Assembly (NCBI GenBank): GCA_041660065.1
Contig: JBAZXC010000004.1
Span: 10,098-74,097, forward strand
Direction of reading: 5' to 3'
DNA length: 64,000 bases
Origin: Parcubacteria group bacterium
GTDB taxonomy: Bacteria; Patescibacteriota; Minisyncoccia; Moranbacterales; GCA-2747515
The notes beneath the pieces are model-generated. The model made no database searches. It was not told where the DNA came from and saw only the letters and a program-made list of their open reading frames with translations. Shown one piece after another: positions 7,804-61,001 of this stretch (within the stretch, counting starts at the first letter, position 1; each line of letters starts with the position of its first letter). The translations under genes were made by a program, and so were the position numbers.

Positions 7804-9591
7804 TTATTTTTTAATATTCAATATGACGTAGAAATCACTTCCTTCTCCAAGTGTACTTGCTACGTAAATATCGCCACCGAGTTGCGTGATCAATTTTTTT
7901 GCAATTGGGAGACCCAAGCCGGAACCTCCGGATATACGCTTCATATGCCCCCCAACCTGTTTGAATTTTTTGAAAATATCATGTAAATCTTCTGTTGCAA
8001 TACCAATGCCGTTGTCTTTAACGTGTATTTCAATTCTATCAGAATCAAGTTTTTTCGTAAAAATTTCTATTTTGCCGATGTCAGGTTTTGTGAATTTGAT
8101 GGCATTATCGATCAAATTGATGATGATACGTCGCAATTGAGTTGGGTCTGTCATAATGCGCACATGAGGATTTGTCGCGTGGAATATAAGGGCTTTGTTT
8201 TCTGTGGCACAGCGCATACGAAAATCGCTGTAAGTTTTTTCGATCAAGTCACTGAGGTTCACATCCTCAATATCAAATTGCATTTTTCCAGACTCCAATT
8301 TTTCCAGATCAAGCATGTTTGACACCATTTCCAACAGTTTATCCGTGTTATTGATGATTTTTTCTGTGTAATTTTTTTGTGTCTCATTTACTTCACCAAA
8401 CATTCCGTTCAATAACATCGATGCAAAGCCCTTAATGATCGTAAGGGGCGTCCTGAGTTCATGTGAGGTGATCGAGATGATCTCATTCTTCATTTTATCA
8501 ACCTTCTTTAACTCCTTGTAGGATTTCTGCATGTTTTCACGGAGTTTTCTTTTCTCTGTGATATTTTCTACGGAGGCGTCAAAATATAAAGCATTTTTTC
8601 CTGGAATGATCTTCCCATATATTTTTATCCAGAGAGCGTTATTTTTGAATGTCAATATCTCGAGTTCCTCTCCTATAACCTCATGTTTTTTTAAAAGTAA
8701 GTTTTTGAATTTTTCTTTTTCATCCTTGTTCTTGAAAAAATCAATAAAGTCAAAATCTGGTTTTTGCAGATGTTTCTTATCGGGGATTTCCAAGAGTTCG
8801 AGAAGGGCATTATTCCATAGAAGCGGTGGGGCGGGCTTATCCATGCGGATGCGAAACATACCAATTGGCAGGTGTTGGATCAATGACACAAACTCAGATT
8901 TTAAAAGGTTTTTTTGCTCCTCAATTTTTGATCCAACTCTAAGGATGAAGGCGAGTAATCCGATCAAAAGGATTAAAATCAAAAGAATGATCCCAATGAT
9001 GCGCCACATGATCGTAACAATCTCTTTTTGAACATCATCGATATACATTCCTGTGCCAATCAGCCATCCCCATGGTTTAAATACGGTCACATGAGATAGC
9101 TTCGGCACTGCGATCGAAGTGTCACCGTGTTTTGGCATCCACATATATTTTACATAGCCCTCCTCGTCATTTCTTGCCATAGCAAGCATAACGGCGCCAA
9201 AGTTGTAGCCGTTTTCATCGGAGAGGTTTTCCAAGTTGGTGCCACGTACCGTGTCGTATGGATGGATAAAAATAATGCCGTCATTGACATTATTTACCCA
9301 AAAATAGTCATCGCCATTTTTGCCGTAACGATAATTGCTGATGATCTCTGTGGCGATTTTTTTTGCTTCTTCCTCATCTAACTCGCCGGAAATAACTCTG
9401 TCATTGAGATTATTCAGTGTTGCAATCAACAGACTTGACATTTCATGGAGCATGTACTGTTTTTCGCTCATGAGAGACTGATTGATGCGGGGAATGATAT
9501 AAAATGCAAACGCGGATGTGGTAAAAATCACAAAAAGCACTGTGATAAATGCGACTTTGCCGAATGTTGTGCTGAGCATTTTTTTGAACAT
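7804..9591 (-). CDS. sensor histidine kinase with extracytoplasmic Cache-like sensor
   Basis: 595 aa; an N-terminal TM, a periplasmic sensor of about 150 aa, a second TM, an H-box SHELRTPLT, and HATPase motifs DNGIGI / GGSGLGL. Confidence 0.8.
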   Translation of the reverse strand: MFKKMLSTTFGKVAFITVLFVIFTTSAFAFYIIPRINQSLMSEKQYMLHEMSSLLIATLNNLNDRVISGELDEEEAKKIATEIISNYRYGKNGDDYFWVNNVNDGIIFIHPYDTVRGTNLENLSDENGYNFGAVMLAMARNDEEGYVKYMWMPKHGDTSIAVPKLSHVTVFKPWGWLIGTGMYIDDVQKEIVTIMWRIIGIILLILILLIGLLAFILRVGSKIEEQKNLLKSEFVSLIQHLPIGMFRIRMDKPAPPLLWNNALLELLEIPDKKHLQKPDFDFIDFFKNKDEKEKFKNLLLKKHEVIGEELEILTFKNNALWIKIYGKIIPGKNALYFDASVENITEKRKLRENMQKSYKELKKVDKMKNEIISITSHELRTPLTIIKGFASMLLNGMFGEVNETQKNYTEKIINNTDKLLEMVSNMLDLEKLESGKMQFDIEDVNLSDLIEKTYSDFRMRCATENKALIFHATNPHVRIMTDPTQLRRIIINLIDNAIKFTKPDIGKIEIFTKKLDSDRIEIHVKDNGIGIATEDLHDIFKKFKQVGGHMKRISGGSGLGLPIAKKLITQLGGDIYVASTLGEGSDFYVILNIKK

Positions 9592-11728: not shown

Positions 11729-12286
11729 TTATGTAAGGAGGATCATTGCTGCTTCATAGCGCGGACGGATCAATTCTTTGGATTTTTCAAAATGCAGTTG
11801 CATCCACTTTCTTTCTAATTTTTGTCGTACGGATTGTTGCGCAGAGCCTTGGTCCAGATTTTCATAGATAAATGCCGCTTTGAAAATACCGGAAATATTA
11901 TCAAAAGCGCTTAGTGTATCCGCTTCTGCGACAATTTGTTCTTCAATTGTGCGACGATCATTTTTTTGCGACCCTCTGTGGTTGAAGATACATTGTTTGA
12001 TGAGAGCGATCTTTTCATCTGGATAATGCAGTTCGCGCAGTTTTGTCTCGGCGATTGTTGCTCCGGTAACATGATGATCCGTGCGACCGTGCACGATCGA
12101 CCCAATGTCATGCAACCATGCCGCGAGAATGATTACTTCTTTATCGCCACCAATCTCGTCTGCCAGTTGTGTGGCATAGCGTACCATTGGAATGAAGTGA
12201 AAGAGAAATGGCTCATAGCCATAGTGACTACTTGGTTTTTTGCACTCCCCTTCGACAAAATTCTTCACCTCCTCGACGATATTCAT
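11729..12286 (-). CDS. HD-domain phosphohydrolase
   Basis: 185 aa; AAWLHDIG ... H ... D metal-binding HD motif. Confidence 0.7.
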   Translation of the reverse strand: MNIVEEVKNFVEGECKKPSSHYGYEPFLFHFIPMVRYATQLADEIGGDKEVIILAAWLHDIGSIVHGRTDHHVTGATIAETKLRELHYPDEKIALIKQCIFNHRGSQKNDRRTIEEQIVAEADTLSAFDNISGIFKAAFIYENLDQGSAQQSVRQKLERKWMQLHFEKSKELIRPRYEAAMILLT

Positions 12287-33914: not shown

Positions 33915-33934
33915 GGTAGAGACGCCCTTTGTAA

Positions 33935-34015
33935 GTCTAAAAATTCTTGTCATTCCCGTGAAGCTTGTCCTCGAGAAATCGGGGAACGGGAATTCATGAT
34001 TATTCTATATGCAAA
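33935..34015. repeat. family-B hairpin repeat copy
   Basis: GTCTAAAAATTCTTGTCATTCCCGTGAAGCTTGTCCTCGAGAAATCGGGGAACGGGAAT...TATTCTATATGC; the reverse complement of 18940-19016. Confidence 0.7.
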
Positions 34016-34043
34016 ATATACTTATATCAGATTTGCGTTACTC

Positions 34044-34072
34044 TTGACAAAATGACGATTTAGGTGTATAAT
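34044..34072 (+). promoter_or_regulatory. consensus sigma70 promoter
   Basis: TTGACA, a 17-nt spacer, then TATAAT, both exact consensus. Confidence 0.6.
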
Positions 34073-34223
34073 ACAGAGTCGTAGTAATTTGACAATTTTT
34101 CATTCACCACAGCCAAAAGAGTCGTATTTAAGGCAATTTTTGGTTGTGGTGAGAGACCATATCGGTCAAATCTAACAGCGAAAATATAAAAATGGCACAT
34201 GTGCCAGAAAAAAGGAGGAAGAT

Positions 34224-34658
34224 ATGTCTTCTGATAACATGAAAACAATAGCACATTTCATCGATTGCGATGCCGATCCGTCCATCCCTAAAGGATGGAA
34301 AGTTGAGAGACATAACAAATGCGGACAATTGGAGTGGAACGCAAAAAAAGTTTCACTACACTTGTCAAAAGTACAGGAAAGTGGCAAGCAAATAAAGGGT
34401 AATCAGCTTTGCAAAGAAATTGAAAAAATGCCTGTGCTGAATGCCAATGTGCTGGATTACCTTTTGGCACATCCTGAACTTATCCCGGAAGAGTGGAAGA
34501 ATAAAGTAGTTTTATTCTGGGGCACTATTTATTGCCTCTCCGATGGTCGCTTGGCTGTTCGTTGTCTCAGTTGGGACGGTGAGCAGTGGTACTGGCACGG
34601 CAGCGGGCTCGACGGTGATTTCCGTTCTGTCCATTCTGCGGTGTTGTGCGCAAATTAG
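34224..34658 (+). CDS. hypothetical protein
   Basis: 144 aa ORF with AAAGGAGG upstream of the ATG; terminator hairpins downstream (34725-34760 and 34832-34862). Confidence 0.5.
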   Translation: MSSDNMKTIAHFIDCDADPSIPKGWKVERHNKCGQLEWNAKKVSLHLSKVQESGKQIKGNQLCKEIEKMPVLNANVLDYLLAHPELIPEEWKNKVVLFWGTIYCLSDGRLAVRCLSWDGEQWYWHGSGLDGDFRSVHSAVLCAN

Positions 34659-35008
34659 TTCTTGGGACTTTGTTTCTTGAATCTTCTCTGGATTCTTTGA
34701 AACCTAGTCCTGTGATCCTAAAAAAAACGAGCACTGTGTTGTATTTCACACAGTGCTCTTTAATTTTGTGCTACAATAAAAAAGGTAGTAGGAAAATATG
34801 CAAGCGATTATGGTTTCTTGCTTTCGAATCTTGCAGGAGCAGGTTTGTAACCTGCTCCTTTTGTTTTTATTACACTTCACAAATATATTGTACATAATAT
34901 AAATGGTGTTTCTATAGTGAATATTTTTTTCAAATTTTTGATAGTTGCTAAAATTGTGATATTGCAAAACTGTTAAAATCAGTAATTTTACAGTCATATG
35001 AAAAAATC

Positions 35009-36388
35009 TTGACTATCTGGTTTTCTCGCGCGTTATCTTGTATCATAAGATATATGATACTTACAATGATCAAAAAGATGATCCCGCGAAAGATCTTTCG
35101 CATGGCGCAACCGATCTATCACTATGTGATGGGTTTTTTGGCGGTGCTTGTGTGCGGTTTTCCCGGCAGAAAGATGATCGTTGTCGGTGTAACGGGGACG
35201 ACGGGTAAGACGACAGTGGTGTATTTGACAGCGCAGGCATTGCGTCATGCAGGACTCCGCGTAGGATATACGTCGACAGCAATGTTTAGCGATGGAAAGA
35301 ACGATTGGCTCAATGATAAAAAGATGACGATGGTGGGGCGGTTTTTCACACAAAATATACTCAGGCGCATGGTGCGAAACGGATGCGATGTGGCAATCGT
35401 AGAAACAACATCCGAGGGAGCGGTACAATTTCGCCATCGCTTTATCAATTATGATGTGATGGTTTTTACCGGGCTCTATCCGGAGCATATTGATTCTCAT
35501 GGCAGTTTTGACAATTACAAAAACGCAAAAAAAGAGATCTTTGCACATCTTGCGCAGTGTAAACACAAAACGATCAAGGGAAAACACATTGCAAAAACGA
35601 TCGTAGCCAATATGGACGATCTGCATGCACAGGATTTCATGCAGTTTGATGTAGAAAAAAAGATTGGTTTTACACAGGGCGACATGCAGGATGCATCTAT
35701 GCAAATCGTGCAGTATACCGCAGGCATATCAAACAAAACGGGTGTGCGGTTTGCATGTGATGGTGTGGATGTGCAGATGCACATTCTGGGTGATTTCAAT
35801 GCGACAAATGCTGTCGCTGCGATCTCTGTTGCGCAAGCACTGGGCGTGGAAAAAAATCGTGCTATTGAAGGGCTGATGCAGGTCATGAGTTTGCCGGGAC
35901 GATTGGAGCGGATCGACGAAGGGCAAGACTTTACCGTAATCGTGGATTATGCATTCGAGCCGGTTGCTGTAACCAAATTATATGAAACAATTCGTGTCCT
36001 TGAACCAAAAAATATCATCCATGTCCTCGGGTCAACCGGAGGCGGACGTGATATTTCACGTCGCGCAAAACTCGGACGCATTGCGGGAGAATTGGCGCGC
36101 TCTGTGATCGTGACGAACGAGGATCCTTATGATGATGATCCGTTGGAAATTATTTCGGCAGTTGCAGATGGCGCGAGAGAGACAGGTAAGGTGGAAGGAC
36201 GAAATCTCTTTTTGATCACAGATCGCGACAGGGCAATTGAGAAAGCTGTTTCTATCGCACACACAGGTGATGTGGTATTGATCACCGGCAAGGGATCGGA
36301 GCAGGCGATCGCTGGGAAAGACGGCATATTGTTTCCATGGGATGATCGACGGTGCGTGCGAGAGGCTTTGCGCAAATTACGAAAATAA
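35009..36388 (+). CDS. Mur ligase family protein (MurE/MurF-like) with N-terminal TM segment
   Basis: 459 aa; P-loop VGVTGTTGKTT, the Mur middle domain, and a C-terminal GDVVLITGKGSE; the true start is probably an internal Met. Confidence 0.7.
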   Translation: MTIWFSRALSCIIRYMILTMIKKMIPRKIFRMAQPIYHYVMGFLAVLVCGFPGRKMIVVGVTGTTGKTTVVYLTAQALRHAGLRVGYTSTAMFSDGKNDWLNDKKMTMVGRFFTQNILRRMVRNGCDVAIVETTSEGAVQFRHRFINYDVMVFTGLYPEHIDSHGSFDNYKNAKKEIFAHLAQCKHKTIKGKHIAKTIVANMDDLHAQDFMQFDVEKKIGFTQGDMQDASMQIVQYTAGISNKTGVRFACDGVDVQMHILGDFNATNAVAAISVAQALGVEKNRAIEGLMQVMSLPGRLERIDEGQDFTVIVDYAFEPVAVTKLYETIRVLEPKNIIHVLGSTGGGRDISRRAKLGRIAGELARSVIVTNEDPYDDDPLEIISAVADGARETGKVEGRNLFLITDRDRAIEKAVSIAHTGDVVLITGKGSEQAIAGKDGILFPWDDRRCVREALRKLRK

Positions 36389-36454
36389 TAAATGGTGTAT
36401 AATGCATAGCAGAGAAAATTGTTGTTTAACATTTAGGATAATTCAACGAAAGAG

Positions 36455-36934
36455 GTGATCGATGTGGATGGCCAAACGGTTGTAACAAACGTGCAGGACG
36501 GCATCATGCGGTTTCGTTGTGTGATGTGTCGTCACGAGGCGGATGTTGCTGTAAAGAGTGGCGTACGAAAATTAAGAGTGCGATGTAAGTGTGGTTTTGT
36601 CATTGTATGCGAGATCGACCGGCGGACAAGTCGACGGGGTCCGTACAAATTTGGCACTGCACAATATGTGTCAAAAAGTGGCACAAAACATATCATTCAA
36701 CCATTTGATATTTCATTTGGTGGCATGGGTTTTTGTTTTTTGCAGGGTGCAAAGCGCCAGCTTTTAGTTGGGCAAAACATCATTATTCAGTATGAAGTGA
36801 GTAGAGGATGTGACACAGTAGATGATTTTGTCGTGCGGAGAGTGTGGGATGATTGGATCGGTGTGCAATATGCTGATGGAATGAATCACCCACCACGACA
36901 TCGGCTGATCATACCATTACAGCAACATAAATAA
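36455..36934 (+). CDS. Zn-ribbon + PilZ domain protein (paralog 1)
   Basis: 159 aa; CVMCRH-x17-CKCG zinc ribbon, then PilZ motifs RRTSRRG (RxxxR) and DISFGGMGF (DxSxxG). Confidence 0.6.
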   Translation: MIDVDGQTVVTNVQDGIMRFRCVMCRHEADVAVKSGVRKLRVRCKCGFVIVCEIDRRTSRRGPYKFGTAQYVSKSGTKHIIQPFDISFGGMGFCFLQGAKRQLLVGQNIIIQYEVSRGCDTVDDFVVRRVWDDWIGVQYADGMNHPPRHRLIIPLQQHK

Positions 36935-36951
36935 AAGGCGGTGGAGCAATT

Positions 36952-37392
36952 ATGTATGTGCAAAAAAACAAAAGGATAATTTGTCGAGTACAGGAGGGAC
37001 ATGCGCAATTTATTTGTCCGCATTGCAAAAAAAGATATATGGTACCTCTGCGTCCCAATGAAAAACGTCGCAAAATTACTTGTCATGCGTGTAAGCAAAA
37101 ATGTGAATGCACATTCAATCGGCGTTATACGATTCGTGAAATGCAGAGTGGTAAAGCGCGACTGGACATGGGAGAATTGGGGTATATGGCCGTTCTTTTG
37201 CATGATATTTCTTGCGCAGGTGTAGGCTTTAGTATTTCTCATGGACAAGCGCGCAAACTGCGCGTGGGTCAACAGGTGCAACGGATCGTATGTGATTGGA
37301 ATCCGCGGTTTCCGCAACACAAGTTGATCATCCGTAATATTTCGGGCGAAAAGGTGGGGGCATGTTTTACCAAGCGCAGACAATTTTTTTAA
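36952..37392 (+). CDS. Zn-ribbon + PilZ domain protein (paralog 2)
   Basis: 146 aa; CPHCKK-x17-CHACKQKCEC, then NRRYTIRE / DISCAGVGF. Confidence 0.6.
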   Translation: MYVQKNKRIICRVQEGHAQFICPHCKKRYMVPLRPNEKRRKITCHACKQKCECTFNRRYTIREMQSGKARLDMGELGYMAVLLHDISCAGVGFSISHGQARKLRVGQQVQRIVCDWNPRFPQHKLIIRNISGEKVGACFTKRRQFF

Positions 37393-37666
37393 AAAAAGAT
37401 CGATGAAAACAATCTCTTGGAGAGCTCTCCGAGAGATTTTTTTATAGTCATATACGTGCAATTATTTGGACAAAGCATATTTATTGATTTTTGGTATTGT
37501 AAAAAGTACTGTATTTTAAAATAGAAAAACCAATGAGACATGACCTCTTTTTCTAAATGATGTATTTTTTTGACAGAAAAGGTGTTTTTACATACAATGA
37601 ATAATCACAATGTTATGGGTGTTTGTTATTTGACAATAAAAATTTTCCAATTATATATGGGGTGCG

Positions 37667-38119
37667 ATGATGGAAGAATTAGAAGCGGGAGTAAAAGGGG
37701 GGCAGACATGGATCGTTTGTCCGCATTGTAAGAGGGGGTCTGGTATAAATGTACCGGAGCACTATGTCAAAAAAACACTTGGATGTAAATGTGGAGGAAA
37801 ATTTCTTGTGACATTTATTCGTCGCAAATGCGATCGAAAAAAGATCAGTGTTACAGGAAAAATAACAATTAATAATGAGGAGCATCCGATCATATTGGTA
37901 GATTTATCGTTGCAGGGTGTGAGTTTCACGGTTTATTCTGCAAAAGTAGGCATAAAAAGAACATATGACATTTCTTTTTCATCTCATGGAAGCACAGTTA
38001 AGACCCCGATAAAAATTGTCGGTGTTTCAGACAAATATGTAAAAGCAGAATTCGTCTTTATTGATGAGTATTGCGGTGCAAAATTGTCGGTGAGACGCAT
38101 ATGGGACAGGTTGTTATGA
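37667..38119 (+). CDS. Zn-ribbon + PilZ domain protein (paralog 3)
   Basis: 150 aa; CPHCKR-x16-CKCGG, then RRKCDRKK / DLSLQGVSF. Confidence 0.6.
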   Translation: MMEELEAGVKGGQTWIVCPHCKRGSGINVPEHYVKKTLGCKCGGKFLVTFIRRKCDRKKISVTGKITINNEEHPIILVDLSLQGVSFTVYSAKVGIKRTYDISFSSHGSTVKTPIKIVGVSDKYVKAEFVFIDEYCGAKLSVRRIWDRLL

Positions 38120-38178
38120 AAGAAAATCCAAAAACGCCAATGGAAATATTCCAGTGGCGTTTTCTTTTTTTGAGGATG

Positions 38179-57082: not shown

Positions 57083-58054
57083 ATGAAAGCAACATTATCT
57101 AATTCCGATTATTTACGTAATTTTGACCGCTTTATCAGCAGTTTAGATTTTTCTGATCCTGATAATCTTCGTATTTATTCTCATCCAAAGTGGATCAATG
57201 TGCATCCTGCTGTTTTAGCTTTAATTGTAGAAATGGCGATGCGGGCAGGTAAGCAGAATGTTACGTTTGAAAATATTACAGCAACTTCCGGTTCGTATCT
57301 TGATCGTATGGGGCTTTTTGAATTCACACATCAAAAGTCACCATATACTATTAACAAGAAAGAAGAATCGGGAAGATTTATACCCGTCACGATTATCAAA
57401 AATTCTACCGAGCAGTCAAAATTTATTACTGACATGATTCCTCTTTTGCATTTACCTGCTGATAAAACGGATGCTATTAAATATACGATTGGGGAACTGC
57501 TTCGTAATGTATTGGAACACTCAGGAAGTACGCATGGAGCGATTGTTGCGGCTCAATACTATAAAAAATCAAACACAATTCGTATTGGTATTTGTGATGG
57601 CGGTATTGGTATTAAAAAGAGTCTGCAACACTATTGGGCTTCTCGGTCAAAGACAGATATAGCTGCAATCAAATGGGCAATGGTACCCGGTATTTCGGGG
57701 ACAACACGAAAAGAAGGCGGAACAGAAGATAATGCTGGTGCCGGATTATTTTTCATTAAATCTATCGCGCAAGTAGCACGTAACTATTTCATGATTTACA
57801 GTGGATCCGGTATTTATAAACTACTACTTCACGATAAGAGAATAGAGAAACCACGGCTCCATTCCGATCCGGATGACGATCGTCATTCTGAACGCGACGA
57901 CGCCCCTTATTTTCAAGGGACATTGGTGGCAATAGATTTATCCCTTGAAAATAAATCTGAATTTACCCAGCTTCTCTCTGCGATACGAGAAGTTTATGGC
58001 AAGGCGGTTAGGGATCGTAAGCGAAAGAAATATAAAGAACCAAAATTTATATGA
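57083..58054 (+). CDS. GHKL-type ATPase (HATPase_c-like) with N-terminal uncharacterised domain
   Basis: 323 aa; N-box ELLRNVLEHS and G1 box ICDGGIGI; the stop overlaps the next start (ATGA). Confidence 0.6.
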   Translation: MKATLSNSDYLRNFDRFISSLDFSDPDNLRIYSHPKWINVHPAVLALIVEMAMRAGKQNVTFENITATSGSYLDRMGLFEFTHQKSPYTINKKEESGRFIPVTIIKNSTEQSKFITDMIPLLHLPADKTDAIKYTIGELLRNVLEHSGSTHGAIVAAQYYKKSNTIRIGICDGGIGIKKSLQHYWASRSKTDIAAIKWAMVPGISGTTRKEGGTEDNAGAGLFFIKSIAQVARNYFMIYSGSGIYKLLLHDKRIEKPRLHSDPDDDRHSERDDAPYFQGTLVAIDLSLENKSEFTQLLSAIREVYGKAVRDRKRKKYKEPKFI

Positions 58055-58365
58055 GTAAAATAATTAAGATTAAGGATCTTGTCGGTGATTTTGCAGAAAA
58101 TAAAGACGTGGCAAAAGATTTACGTGTCACCGATATTATGCCGACCTTGGCAGATGGTCAGGAGGTCATATTGGATTTTTCTGGAGTTAGCGGTACAACT
58201 CAATCATTTATTCACGCCTTGATCTCTGAACCAATTCGGCGGTTTCGTGATGTAGCTTTGGAAAAGATACACTACAAAAATTGTTCTGATGTTGTAAAAG
58301 AAGTTATTAAAACGGTGTCTGAATATATGCAGGAAAGTCTTGATTCGGAAAATTATGAAAAATAA
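58051..58365 (+). CDS. STAS-like small protein (DUF4325-like partner of the GHKL ATPase)
   Basis: 104 aa; translationally coupled to the ATPase; ...EVILDFSGVSGTTQSFIHALI... resembles the STAS-like DUF4325. Confidence 0.45.
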   Translation: MSKIIKIKDLVGDFAENKDVAKDLRVTDIMPTLADGQEVILDFSGVSGTTQSFIHALISEPIRRFRDVALEKIHYKNCSDVVKEVIKTVSEYMQESLDSENYEK

Positions 58366-58449
58366 TAACGATAGATGCAATTTAGTTGTAGAAAATCCGC
58401 AAAGCACTGTGGATGCTGAATAATTGGGGTCAGGCACCTTTTATCCAGG

Positions 58450-58498
58450 GGCTGTTTTTGTATAGAGAGGTAGGGACGTGTGGAACTTTTTATGATAT
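58450..58498. repeat. cassette-boundary repeat, right arm only
   Basis: GGCTGTTTTTGTATAGAGAGGTAGGGACGTGTGGAACTTTTTATGATAT. Confidence 0.6.
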
Positions 58499-58524
58499 GC
58501 TGAAAGCATATTTTATATAAATTT

Positions 58525-59196
58525 ATGTCAGCAAATATCATAAAACACTTTATTGAAACAAGAGATTTTAATTACGGATCAGTGAAAGAAAAGCTCAATG
58601 AAATCATGGATGAGCATACAAAAAAGGCGTGTGTAATGTTAAATATCAACCTTGTTAATATCATTATATGGCCAAATAGTGATGCAGTGATACCGGAAAC
58701 AGGCGAAGGTGGCCAAGTATGGTCAAAAGAACTTGTTATGATTTATATTGATCCAAGTCGTTCTGTCGCAGAACTTCAAAAGATCATTGAAACACAAATT
58801 CCAGCAACAATCTATCACGAATTAAATCATATTGCTAGGGGAAATTTTTTAAGCAAAGAAGAACTTGGTTTCCATCATAATTTATCAAAAGCAGTAATCT
58901 CAGAGGGTATCGCGTCCTATTTTGCACATGAAAAATGGTCGCAAGCTCAAATGCCATGGACAAAATACTCGGAAACAGAAATACAAGATCTTTTGAGCAT
59001 TTATTTAAGCAGAGATATTTCTGATGATGACCAATATGACCATGAAAAATGGTTTTATGGCACGGGTGATCTCCCACGATGGATCGGCTATAAATTGGGA
59101 TATTATTTCGTTGAACGTTATAAGAAACAAAATCCAAATGTTTCATGGAGCGATATTATAAAACTAAAAGATCATGAGTTCATGAAAACTGTGTAA
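58525..59196 (+). CDS. putative Zn-dependent protease (HExxH; DUF2268-like)
   Basis: 223 aa; the HELNHIARG zinc-binding motif is in a soluble protein. Confidence 0.5.
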   Translation: MSANIIKHFIETRDFNYGSVKEKLNEIMDEHTKKACVMLNINLVNIIIWPNSDAVIPETGEGGQVWSKELVMIYIDPSRSVAELQKIIETQIPATIYHELNHIARGNFLSKEELGFHHNLSKAVISEGIASYFAHEKWSQAQMPWTKYSETEIQDLLSIYLSRDISDDDQYDHEKWFYGTGDLPRWIGYKLGYYFVERYKKQNPNVSWSDIIKLKDHEFMKTV

Positions 59197-59207
59197 ATCA
59201 TATTTTT

Positions 59208-59278
59208 TCATCAAAAAAGTTCCAACGTCGTCCCACTCCTTGTAAAGGAAATCACGCAATTTACTGCGTGGTTTTTTT
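59208..59278. repeat. cassette-boundary repeat, left arm + terminator hairpin
   Basis: TTCATCAAAAAAGTTCCAACGTCGTCCCACTCC, then CACGCAatttacTGCGTGGTTTTTTT. Confidence 0.6.
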
Positions 59279-59515
59279 AATTTAATTCTAATCTTGATTG
59301 CAGGTGACAATTCGCAAAAAGCCAAGTATGGTAGAAAATGGGATTTTCTGCCTAAAGTTGCGAAAACTTACTGAACGGGAGTATACTGTAAATAATTCGT
59401 AAACTTTATAATATGTCGAATATAAAAATAAATCATGGAAGAAAATTATCTAAATTGAAAGATGAAAATATGTGGAGTATAAAATTTTGAATTTATCATA
59501 ATTAATGAATCGCAT

Positions 59516-59926
59516 ATGAAACAGTATAGTATTTTTATAAGTCATTCATGGGCTTATGGCGAAAACTATAATAGGCTCATCAAAATGCTTAATAATGATC
59601 CCTATTTTCATTTTAAAGATTATTCTGTTCCAAAGCATGATCCCATTCATAATGCTCCAAATCAACTTCTTTTAAAGCAAGCGATTGCAAATCAAATAAG
59701 ATTTTGTGATGTCGTAATAATATTAGCGGGTGTTTATTCAACATATAGCAAGTGGATCAATATTGAAATTGACATTGCTAAGAATGGCTTTCAATATCCA
59801 AAATCTATTCTTGCAATTGAGCCTTGGGCTAGTGAAAAAACATCACAAATTGTCAAGAAAAATGCCGATAAAATAGTTAGGTGGCAAACATGTTCAATTG
59901 TTGATGCAATAAAAGGATTAGCCTAA
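59516..59926 (+). CDS. TIR-like domain protein (DUF1863/ThsB-like)
   Basis: 136 aa; YSIFISHSWAYGENY...CDVVIILAGVYSTYSKWINIEIDIA fits the bacterial TIR-like pattern (FIShS ... S.W...E); AT-rich (about 30% GC); 12 nt upstream of the next gene. Confidence 0.5.
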   Translation: MKQYSIFISHSWAYGENYNRLIKMLNNDPYFHFKDYSVPKHDPIHNAPNQLLLKQAIANQIRFCDVVIILAGVYSTYSKWINIEIDIAKNGFQYPKSILAIEPWASEKTSQIVKKNADKIVRWQTCSIVDAIKGLA

Positions 59927-59938
59927 ATCATAATCTTT

Positions 59939-60466
59939 ATGGATATTAAAAAATTGGAAGAAAAACTATTTGTTTCGAAGAATGAAAATTATGGAGATAA
60001 ATATATAGAACACTTATTGGAACAATATAAGGTTTATATTGACTCTGCAGAAAAAATAAGTGATCGTAGACAAAAATCAAATGAATTTTTTCTTGCTTTA
60101 AATAGTAGCTTGGTTGCATTATTGGGATATATACTTGCGAAAAATAGTGATTCAGAAATAGTAAGCTTGTTCATTCTATCTTCTATTTCAGGGATCGTAT
60201 TATGTTATTTTTGGTATAGAATTATTTATTCTTATAAATGTTTAAATAGTGGAAAATTCAAAGTTATTCACATGATTGAAAGACGATTACCACTAGCGCT
60301 TTATGACACAGAATGGGAAATATTGGAAAGAGGAAAAAACAAGAAAGTTTACTGGCCGTTCTCGCATATTGAGCTCATGGTCCCTTGGATATTTATTATT
60401 ATTTATATAACCATTTTATTTCTCAACCTATGTCCAAAAATAGGAGCGTTGATATGTGCAATGTAA
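59939..60466 (+). CDS. small 3-TM protein, SLATT-like candidate effector (paralog 1)
   Basis: 175 aa; an N-terminal amphipathic helix, two closely spaced TM helices (FFLALNSSLVALLGYIL / IVSLFILSSISGIVLCYFWY), a soluble loop and a C-terminal TM; overlaps the next gene by 11 nt. Confidence 0.5.
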   Translation: MDIKKLEEKLFVSKNENYGDKYIEHLLEQYKVYIDSAEKISDRRQKSNEFFLALNSSLVALLGYILAKNSDSEIVSLFILSSISGIVLCYFWYRIIYSYKCLNSGKFKVIHMIERRLPLALYDTEWEILERGKNKKVYWPFSHIELMVPWIFIIIYITILFLNLCPKIGALICAM

Positions 60467-61001
60467 ATGGAGGATAAATATGAAAAAAGAAAAAAACATA
60501 GAATTAATTTATTCTGAGGTAAAAGAGAGATTAAATAGGCAGATAGATTCCATAGATCAGGTGGCAGTTAAATTTAATTTTTTACTTGCGCTTAATAGTA
60601 TAATATTGGCTTCACTCTTACAATCTAACCTTTTAGGATCTCGAAAGGAATGTATTTCATGGATGATGTTTTTTGCAGTAGTGTGCTTTTTTTTATCAAT
60701 CCTATTTGACTTGAGAGGGCTAGTTATGCAAAAGTATAGACGAGATCCTGATCCACAAAAACTTTATGAAGGATATTTCAACAAATCAAAGCAATATACT
60801 CAAGAAGTCTTAATCATTAATTACGTGCATGCTTTCAATGAAAATGTGAAAAAATTACATCATGTTAACAAATTTTTTGCTTATTCAATATTTTCTTCCT
60901 CTATTGCTTTAATATTTGTTTTTATAAATTTAATTAATCCTAATTTAATTTTCATATGGAAAATGATAATAAAGATGATGTGTCAGATATGCCAAAGTTA
61001 G
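60456..61001 (+). CDS. small 3-TM protein, SLATT-like candidate effector (paralog 2)
   Basis: 181 aa; same architecture as the upstream gene; shared LALNS(I/S)(I/L)LAxLL motif. Confidence 0.5.
   Translation: MQCKWRINMKKEKNIELIYSEVKERLNRQIDSIDQVAVKFNFLLALNSIILASLLQSNLLGSRKECISWMMFFAVVCFFLSILFDLRGLVMQKYRRDPDPQKLYEGYFNKSKQYTQEVLIINYVHAFNENVKKLHHVNKFFAYSIFSSSIALIFVFINLINPNLIFIWKMIIKMMCQICQS

Follow-up and report, generated by a model that had tools for sequence, protein, structure and literature searches.

Three neighbouring zinc-ribbon-PilZ proteins predicted to be c-di-GMP receptors in a Parcubacteria group bacterium

The window examined here, 64 kb of a 98,559-bp contig from a Parcubacteria group bacterium metagenome-assembled genome (MAG), carries three neighbouring + strand genes, A, B and C, each of which encodes an N-terminal zinc ribbon followed by a PilZ domain. 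PilZ is the best-known receptor domain for cyclic di-GMP (c-di-GMP). With a probability that we would put at about 0.6, the three products act as small, stand-alone c-di-GMP receptors in the cytoplasm and represent a zinc-ribbon-PilZ architecture that has not been described before, a prediction that follows from the fusion of a zinc ribbon to a PilZ domain in which the binding residues are intact. That they are at least credible c-di-GMP receptors is very probable given the PilZ fold of B and C, the aligned and intact motifs, the invariant cysteines, purifying selection, the wide distribution of the family, and the terminator and promoter that lie between B and C. The Candidate Phyla Radiation (CPR) appears to have been hardly studied for c-di-GMP receptors, and a genome of about 1000 genes in which three of them share an identical ligand site but differ in output would be a compact system for studying the routing of one messenger to several targets.

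The locus had been picked out in a preliminary description, and the three open reading frames (ORFs) given there (36455-36934, 36952-37392 and 37667-38119, all on the + strand) and the motif strings quoted from them are exact. Of the lengths it listed, 159, 146 and 150 amino acids (aa), that of B stands, A is most likely 156 aa and C is recorded as 149 aa. Gene A (WC819_04810; 36464-36934, +; NCBI protein P0005) encodes 156 aa, or 159 aa when read from a GTG at 36455, with ribbon cysteines C19, C22, C41 and C43, RRTSRR at residues 53-58, DISFGG at 82-87 and a conserved C-terminal motif, VGVQYADG..P..R. Gene B (WC819_04815; 36952-37392, +; 146 aa) has C22, C25, C44 and C47, RRYTIR at 57-62, DISCAG at 85-90, a subfamily-specific CDWNP motif and no C-terminal helix. 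Gene C (37670-38119, +; P0001) encodes 149 aa, or 150 aa from an ATG at 37667, and in the 150-aa numbering, which is kept below, has C18, C21, C40 and C42, RRKCDR at 52-57 and DLSLQG at 79-84, its six beta strands being followed by a C-terminal helix (137-148) with the conserved motif DEYC.AKLSVRRIW. When the six-frame ORFs of at least 80 aa were scanned for RR...R-x15-40-[DN]xSxxG, three occurrences were found in the 64 kb, exactly those of A, B and C.

A, B and C belong to the PilZ family by fold, in the case of B and C, and by motifs. In an alignment of the three with their orthologues the invariant positions are exactly C18, C21, C40, C42, R52, R53, R57, D79, S81 and G84, and in a 52-sequence family alignment the four cysteines, R53, S81 and G84 are still invariant and R57 is conserved in at least 90%. 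The Pfam PilZ model (PF07238) is matched by 40 of these 52 aligned members at E <= 0.01 (best 1.2e-10), and of A, B and C taken singly only C reaches the gathering cut-off, barely, with 22.8 bits vs 22.5. The AlphaFold model of C (predicted local distance difference test score, pLDDT, 88) shows residues 3-51 as five short strands, after which come six strands and a terminal helix, the canonical PilZ layout (bioRxiv 10.1101/814665). A Foldseek search with this model returned MapZ first (5xly_B, E 2.2e-6), the other leading matches being Alg44, BcsA, YcgR, PlzD and MotI. The model of B (pLDDT 91.3) is without the terminal helix and found the BcsA PilZ domain, PP4397, PA0012 and Alg44, with E from 6.6e-6 and a template modelling (TM) score against PA0012 (8u0i) of 0.83 normalised to the target, and so both models match solved c-di-GMP-bound PilZ domains.

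The preliminary description had made its reading depend on RxxxR and DxSxxG falling on the binding positions, and alignment of the family to MapZ by hhalign (E 1.5e-4) bears this out. R53 and R57 pair with MapZ R9 and R13, and D79-L80-S81 with D35-V36-S37; R9, R13, D35 and S37 are named as ligand contacts (bioRxiv 10.1101/814665). DISFGG of A, DISCAG of B and DLSLQG of C align to D35-V36-S37..G40, the [D/N]hSxxG of strand 2. The MapZ sequence used is consistent with all the residue numbers in that paper. The pairing of zinc ribbon and PilZ domain in all three proteins, also put forward earlier, thus finds agreement in the family alignment, the Pfam matches across the family, the folds of B and C and the MapZ alignment; for A itself, the alignment, a weak Pfam match and the PF07238 marks that its orthologues P0007 and P0008 carry as precomputed assignments would point to a PilZ domain.

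There are a number of results that weigh against c-di-GMP receptors. PF07238, the profile that had been suggested as a check, stays below its cut-off for A alone (13.4 bits, E 0.099) and does not match B. The family-level hhalign probability against MapZ is just 51%, and profiles built from single subfamilies gave nothing significant against MapZ. No diguanylate cyclase or phosphodiesterase was found in the 64 kb or in related 12-16 kb loci, so that the genome might lack the ligand. No conserved partner gene was found either, the neighbours varying by lineage, which would nonetheless be consistent with a free-standing adaptor. A sequence-profile search of solved structures gave no PilZ match at E <= 1 and weak zinc-ribbon matches only, and it is the fold searches that settle the PilZ assignment.

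Known PilZ proteins offer two comparisons for how such receptors might work. MapZ (PA4608) and other stand-alone PilZ adaptors are small cytoplasmic proteins with a single PilZ barrel and a C-terminal helix, as in protein C; the RxxxR and DhSxxG of MapZ align residue for residue with those of the family, and MapZ acts via ligand-dependent binding of a partner (CheR1), the mode that is proposed for A, B and C. It differs in having a short flexible N-terminal loop before RxxxR, where A, B and C have a folded four-cysteine ribbon of ~50 residues, and there are no chemotaxis genes near A, B and C. YcgR, PlzD (VCA0042) and MotI, which are among the structural matches, likewise have a domain N-terminal to PilZ and joined to it, RxxxR lying where the two meet, and the ligand-driven docking of that domain is the source of the mechanism proposed here. 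Their N-terminal domains are however PilZ-like barrels (PilZN/YcgR_2) rather than zinc ribbons, neither PilZN (PF07317) nor PilZNR (PF12945) was matched by A, B or C in Pfam at E <= 10, and the window showed no flagellar genes. PA0012 (PDB 8u0i), a minimal PilZ protein, differs from A, B and C in having no zinc ribbon.

What we infer, namely c-di-GMP binding, zinc binding, a conformational switch and the identity and number of the partners, would fit together as follows. The ~50-residue four-cysteine ribbon is joined directly to a canonical PilZ beta-barrel with RRxxxR in the junction, and the junction arginines together with the DhSxxG strand of the barrel would clamp c-di-GMP. The ligand would then order the junction and fix the ribbon on the barrel, by analogy with YcgR/PlzD, or order the N-terminal segment, by analogy with MapZ-CheR1 (PDB 5xly), and in either case a ligand-dependent surface would result that binds a partner. 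The ligand site is shared and the C-terminal ends differ, A having a YADG..SPQQR tail, B a CDWNP insert and no helix, and C an amphipathic helix; given these divergent ends and separate transcription units, the paralogues probably couple one signal to different targets, A/B vs C. The multiple outputs named in the preliminary description are likewise an inference.

The separation into transcription units is predicted from what lies between B and C. An intrinsic-terminator-like hairpin (37411-37446, +; the hairpin itself at 37411-37438), with a 12-bp stem, a 4-nucleotide (nt) loop and a T run, would close the A-B unit, and it is followed by a sigma-70-like promoter for C (37570-37598, +; TTGACA-17-TACAAT, 11/12, a consensus match only), so that A-B would form one unit and C another. 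A and B are 17 nt apart and B and C 274-277 nt. The earlier picture of a tandem triplet of paralogues therefore holds for the paralogy (BLASTP: A-B 25% identity, E 3e-8; B-C 27%, E 1e-7; A-C 23%, E 3e-4) but not for an even tandem arrangement, and a recent tandem triplication is ruled out by the tree described below. Downstream of C a further hairpin (38131-38163; 15-nt arms, 3-nt loop) lies between the convergent genes C and DUF212 and is likely to be a bidirectional terminator.

With regard to gene starts, GTG 36464 is most likely that of A, as an AAGAGG ribosome-binding site abuts GTG 36455. The NCBI call for B (P0009, 117 aa) begins 29 codons too late, losing 36952-37038 and with it the first CxxC of the zinc ribbon; the 146-aa start at 36952 is right, since orthologues of 139-142 aa retain this CxxC and a GGTGGAG ribosome-binding site lies upstream. 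The three are real genes: orthologues in the same syntenic position occur in at least six other contigs, and the ratio of non-synonymous to synonymous divergence (dN/dS), taken from the least saturated pair, is 0.23 for A, 0.10 for B and 0.17 for C, which indicates purifying selection on all three. An antisense ORF of 191 aa (36886-37461) was rejected as spurious, as it overlaps B, which has conserved orthologues and this low ratio. It was also observed that the 16-nt stretch coding for the first zinc knuckle (…CPHCK…) is identical at 15/16 positions between B (37013-37028) and C (37716-37731), in proteins only 27% identical, which could be chance or the trace of gene conversion.

Turning to the ribbon, the spacing CxxC-x16/17-CxC originally given needs amending, although an N-terminal zinc ribbon is indeed present in all three: the spacing is CxxC-x18-CxC in A and C and CxxC-x18-CxxC in B. 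The two knuckles and the four cysteines invariant in 52 sequences are those of a C4 zinc ribbon, metal binding itself being a prediction. In Pfam the ribbon of B scores 18.0 bits with Zn_ribbon_4 (cut-off 30.3) and 17.0 with Elf1 (cut-off 29.8), and A and C have no ribbon-family match with E < 0.7; NCBIfam gave nothing significant for the three proteins, the best for B being Elf1 (E 0.016). The Elf1-type ribbon is matched by 12 of the 52 family members (best E 1.1e-5), and the weak ribbon matches among solved structures (E 0.12-0.9) are to RNA polymerase subunit P, the AgmX zinc ribbon and Elf1. MJ0042-/Elf1-type ribbons, for example that of Myxococcus AgmX/GltJ (PDB 7zok), resemble those of A, B and C in that a beta-rich mini-domain carries two CxxC-type knuckles with ~18 residues between them, and the profile similarity is weak; the scores of A, B and C are nevertheless all below the curated cut-offs, and the ribbon is for this reason left outside the named families as a generic C4 zinc ribbon.

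These similarities bear on the main rival explanation, in which A, B and C would be c-di-GMP-dependent regulators that bind nucleic acid or RNA polymerase, the basic ribbon contacting DNA, RNA or the transcription machinery and PilZ gating the contact. The three proteins are strongly basic (isoelectric points, pI, of 9.5-10.2, with a net charge for B of ~+21, of which the ribbon contributes +12), their ribbons have the weak similarity to Elf1-type ribbons and RNA polymerase subunit P noted above, and there are nucleic-acid-binding PilZ precedents in MrkH and Borrelia PlzA. However, no ribbon match attains a curated cut-off, matches of this kind arise from CxxC spacing alone, A, B and C contain no helix-turn-helix or other DNA-binding domain, and a high pI is unspecific, being common among small arginine-rich PilZ proteins. 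It would therefore seem rather unlikely that they are regulators of this type, and partner-binding receptors remain our preferred reading.

The preliminary description had remarked that no GGDEF, EAL or HD-GYP enzyme was visible in the 64 kb, and this proved correct, with no GG[DE]EF, EAL or HD-GYP motif in any window ORF of at least 80 aa and none of these domains in Pfam scans of ~60 ORFs. The sole HD protein of the window (11729-12286, -) is stand-alone and without the GYP signature, and an Rfam search of the window found no c-di-GMP riboswitch, two tRNAs only, and sub-threshold matches around the three genes. The organism is not devoid of signalling, as a Cache-HisKA-HATPase sensor kinase is encoded at 7804-9591 (-). 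The absence of the enzymes holds for the window and says little about the whole genome, of which the window is 64 kb out of at least ~960 genes (a number inferred from locus-tag numbering), and there is a report of diguanylate cyclase genes from MAGs of Patescibacteria (PMC9938205). Full-text literature searches found no paper joining c-di-GMP, PilZ and CPR; a match for "PilZ" in Saccharibacteria was set aside, as it concerns the minor pilins PilZ1 and PilZ2 and not the PilZ domain.

A second alternative is that the receptors have no endogenous signal, the lineage being without a diguanylate cyclase, and either sense c-di-GMP of a host cell or serve as ligand-independent adaptors. It would account for the missing enzymes in the window and the related loci, it suits a MAG from the Parcubacteria, a group of reduced metabolism, and the cassette that holds the three genes is swapped or hypervariable among close relatives, as would be expected at an interaction interface. 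Set against this, every ligand-contacting residue is strictly invariant, which argues against ligand-independent use, cyclases are reported in Patescibacteria as just cited, and the search for the enzymes covered 64 kb out of a contig of 98.6 kb, the genome having at least 960 genes; we regard this alternative as quite improbable. Less probable still are degenerate PilZ-like proteins that no longer bind nucleotide, like PilZ proper of Xanthomonas or Pseudomonas, with the ribbon as the sole functional module: A and B do fall below the Pfam PilZ cut-off and B does miss the canonical C-terminal helix, but non-binding PilZ proteins have lost RxxxR and [D/N]xSxxG (bioRxiv 10.1101/814665), both of which are invariant in the A, B and C groups, and the closest structural matches of B include PA0012, a short PilZ protein whose structure was determined with c-di-GMP bound.

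The zinc-ribbon-PilZ family extends well beyond this contig. When 1.84 billion cluster representatives were searched exhaustively with HMMER, 1145 matched at E <= 1e-3 and 373 at E <= 1e-10, most of them proteins of 135-165 aa aligned from ribbon through barrel. Among the 147 best matches the order ribbon, RxxxR, [DN]xSxxG is kept in 133, and 117 are no longer than 180 aa. Two to five ribbon motifs are present in 21 of the 147, 15 of them with one PilZ motif pair and five arranged as tandem (ribbon-PilZ)x2; P0012, P0014, P0015 and P0022, for example, have four or five tandem ribbons and then a single PilZ, or (ribbon-PilZ)x2. Such relatives suggest that the ribbon is an independent, repeatable module. 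No dedicated Pfam or NCBIfam model matched the architecture, a fusion of zinc ribbon to PilZ goes unmentioned in a comparative review of PilZ proteins (bioRxiv 10.1101/814665) and full-text literature searches returned no paper on one, so that an architecture with more than 1100 cluster representatives would be widespread yet undescribed.

The named members, labelled merely "PilZ domain-containing protein", come from Desulfogranum marinum (WP_205221336.1) and from a deltaproteobacterial MAG (Desulfobacterota). The D. marinum protein has the same architecture in 147 aa and clusters with the family match P0020, but unlike A, B and C it is encoded by a single-copy gene in a Desulfobacterota genome, outside any three-gene cassette, close to a gene for a Cache-PAS sensor and 3.5 kb from one for an EAL-HDOD protein. 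A distant member, P0158 (a cluster of 256 sequences from 144 contigs), was observed directly upstream of minC-minD-minE with FemAB nearby (L006 6001-8604, L007 and L008), a setting that might connect the family with cell division or the envelope outside the present lineage, and a member of a third cluster precedes a CotH gene. Metagenome scans with the A-group and B-group alignments gave no matches, and a GTDB genome scan with the A-group alignment found one locus only, L005 (DYDB01000011.1), which is the same as L001 (JAEMOL010000132.1). This only GTDB-representative contig with the cassette is titled "Micavibrio sp. isolate IMS_BF-2"; it has the gene order of the Parcubacteria window, at 72-80% nucleotide identity, and so its Micavibrio label or its binning is probably wrong.

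A neighbour-joining tree places A, B and C in three separate, deep clades; each clade holds the syntenic orthologues of its gene and lies nearer to family members recovered by the exhaustive search than to either of the others. As far as the tree goes, the triplet is thus an old assembly of separate subfamilies and not a recent triplication. The A-B-C order is preserved in L001/L005, L002 and L004, and L003, which ends at a contig edge, shows A and B. In L010 the order is A, a C-like gene and B, in L011 and L012 a C-like gene adjoins DUF212, and in the close relative L009 A and B are present and C is absent.

Comparison with L009 reveals a variable cassette at 36349-38161 that has no blastn match in that contig, with flanks at 84-89% nucleotide identity. 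The flank proteins are 85-96% identical (dS 0.43-1.0, dN 0.016-0.086), whereas within the cassette identity falls to 46% for A and 54% for B, synonymous sites are saturated (pS, the proportion of synonymous differences, 0.74-0.79) and dN is 0.36-0.47. Since synonymous as well as non-synonymous divergence rises abruptly at the borders, this looks like replacement by recombination or very old retained alleles and not merely rapid protein evolution. Between L001 and L004 C alone is divergent, at 52-74% nucleotide identity vs 81-93% around it. Flanking repeats of the kind expected of a mobile cassette were looked for and not found, PADLOC gave no defence-system match for A, B or C at E <= 0.01, and tblastn found no match of the three in phages or plasmids.

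The sharp jump in divergence suggests a fast turnover of receptors that would be unusual for housekeeping signalling parts. A highly speculative extension, to which we attach very little weight, is that in episymbiotic Parcubacteria the cassette diversifies by being swapped through recombination, alleles being exchanged or replaced and C gained or lost with the ligand site fixed, because the receptors read host-derived or host-reporting c-di-GMP or track fast-changing partners. Were this so, they would be the first second-messenger receptors tied to host interaction in the CPR.

Upstream of the cassette are FemAB and a Mur-type ligase, and the genes downstream of it are those for DUF212, which is on the opposite strand, for LemA and an M48/HtpX protease, and for a hypothetical protein, DUF4870 and pyruvate kinase. 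A segment of ~1.1 kb (33918-35019) that separates FemAB from the Mur-type ligase is absent in L009, an insertion or deletion adjoining the variable cassette, and it contains a 144-aa ORF (34224-34658) without a Pfam or PADLOC match. Finally, a defence-like cluster was observed at 57083-61001, overlapping a low-GC zone at 58-64 kb (30-34% GC vs ~42% elsewhere). It comprises a DrmA-like fragment (57083-58054), a ThsB-type TIR protein (59516-59926; PF08937, E 8.7e-17), an 8xMP octameric membrane protein (59939-60466; E 2.4e-42) encoded 13 nt downstream of the TIR gene, and a PycTM-like membrane protein (60456-61001).

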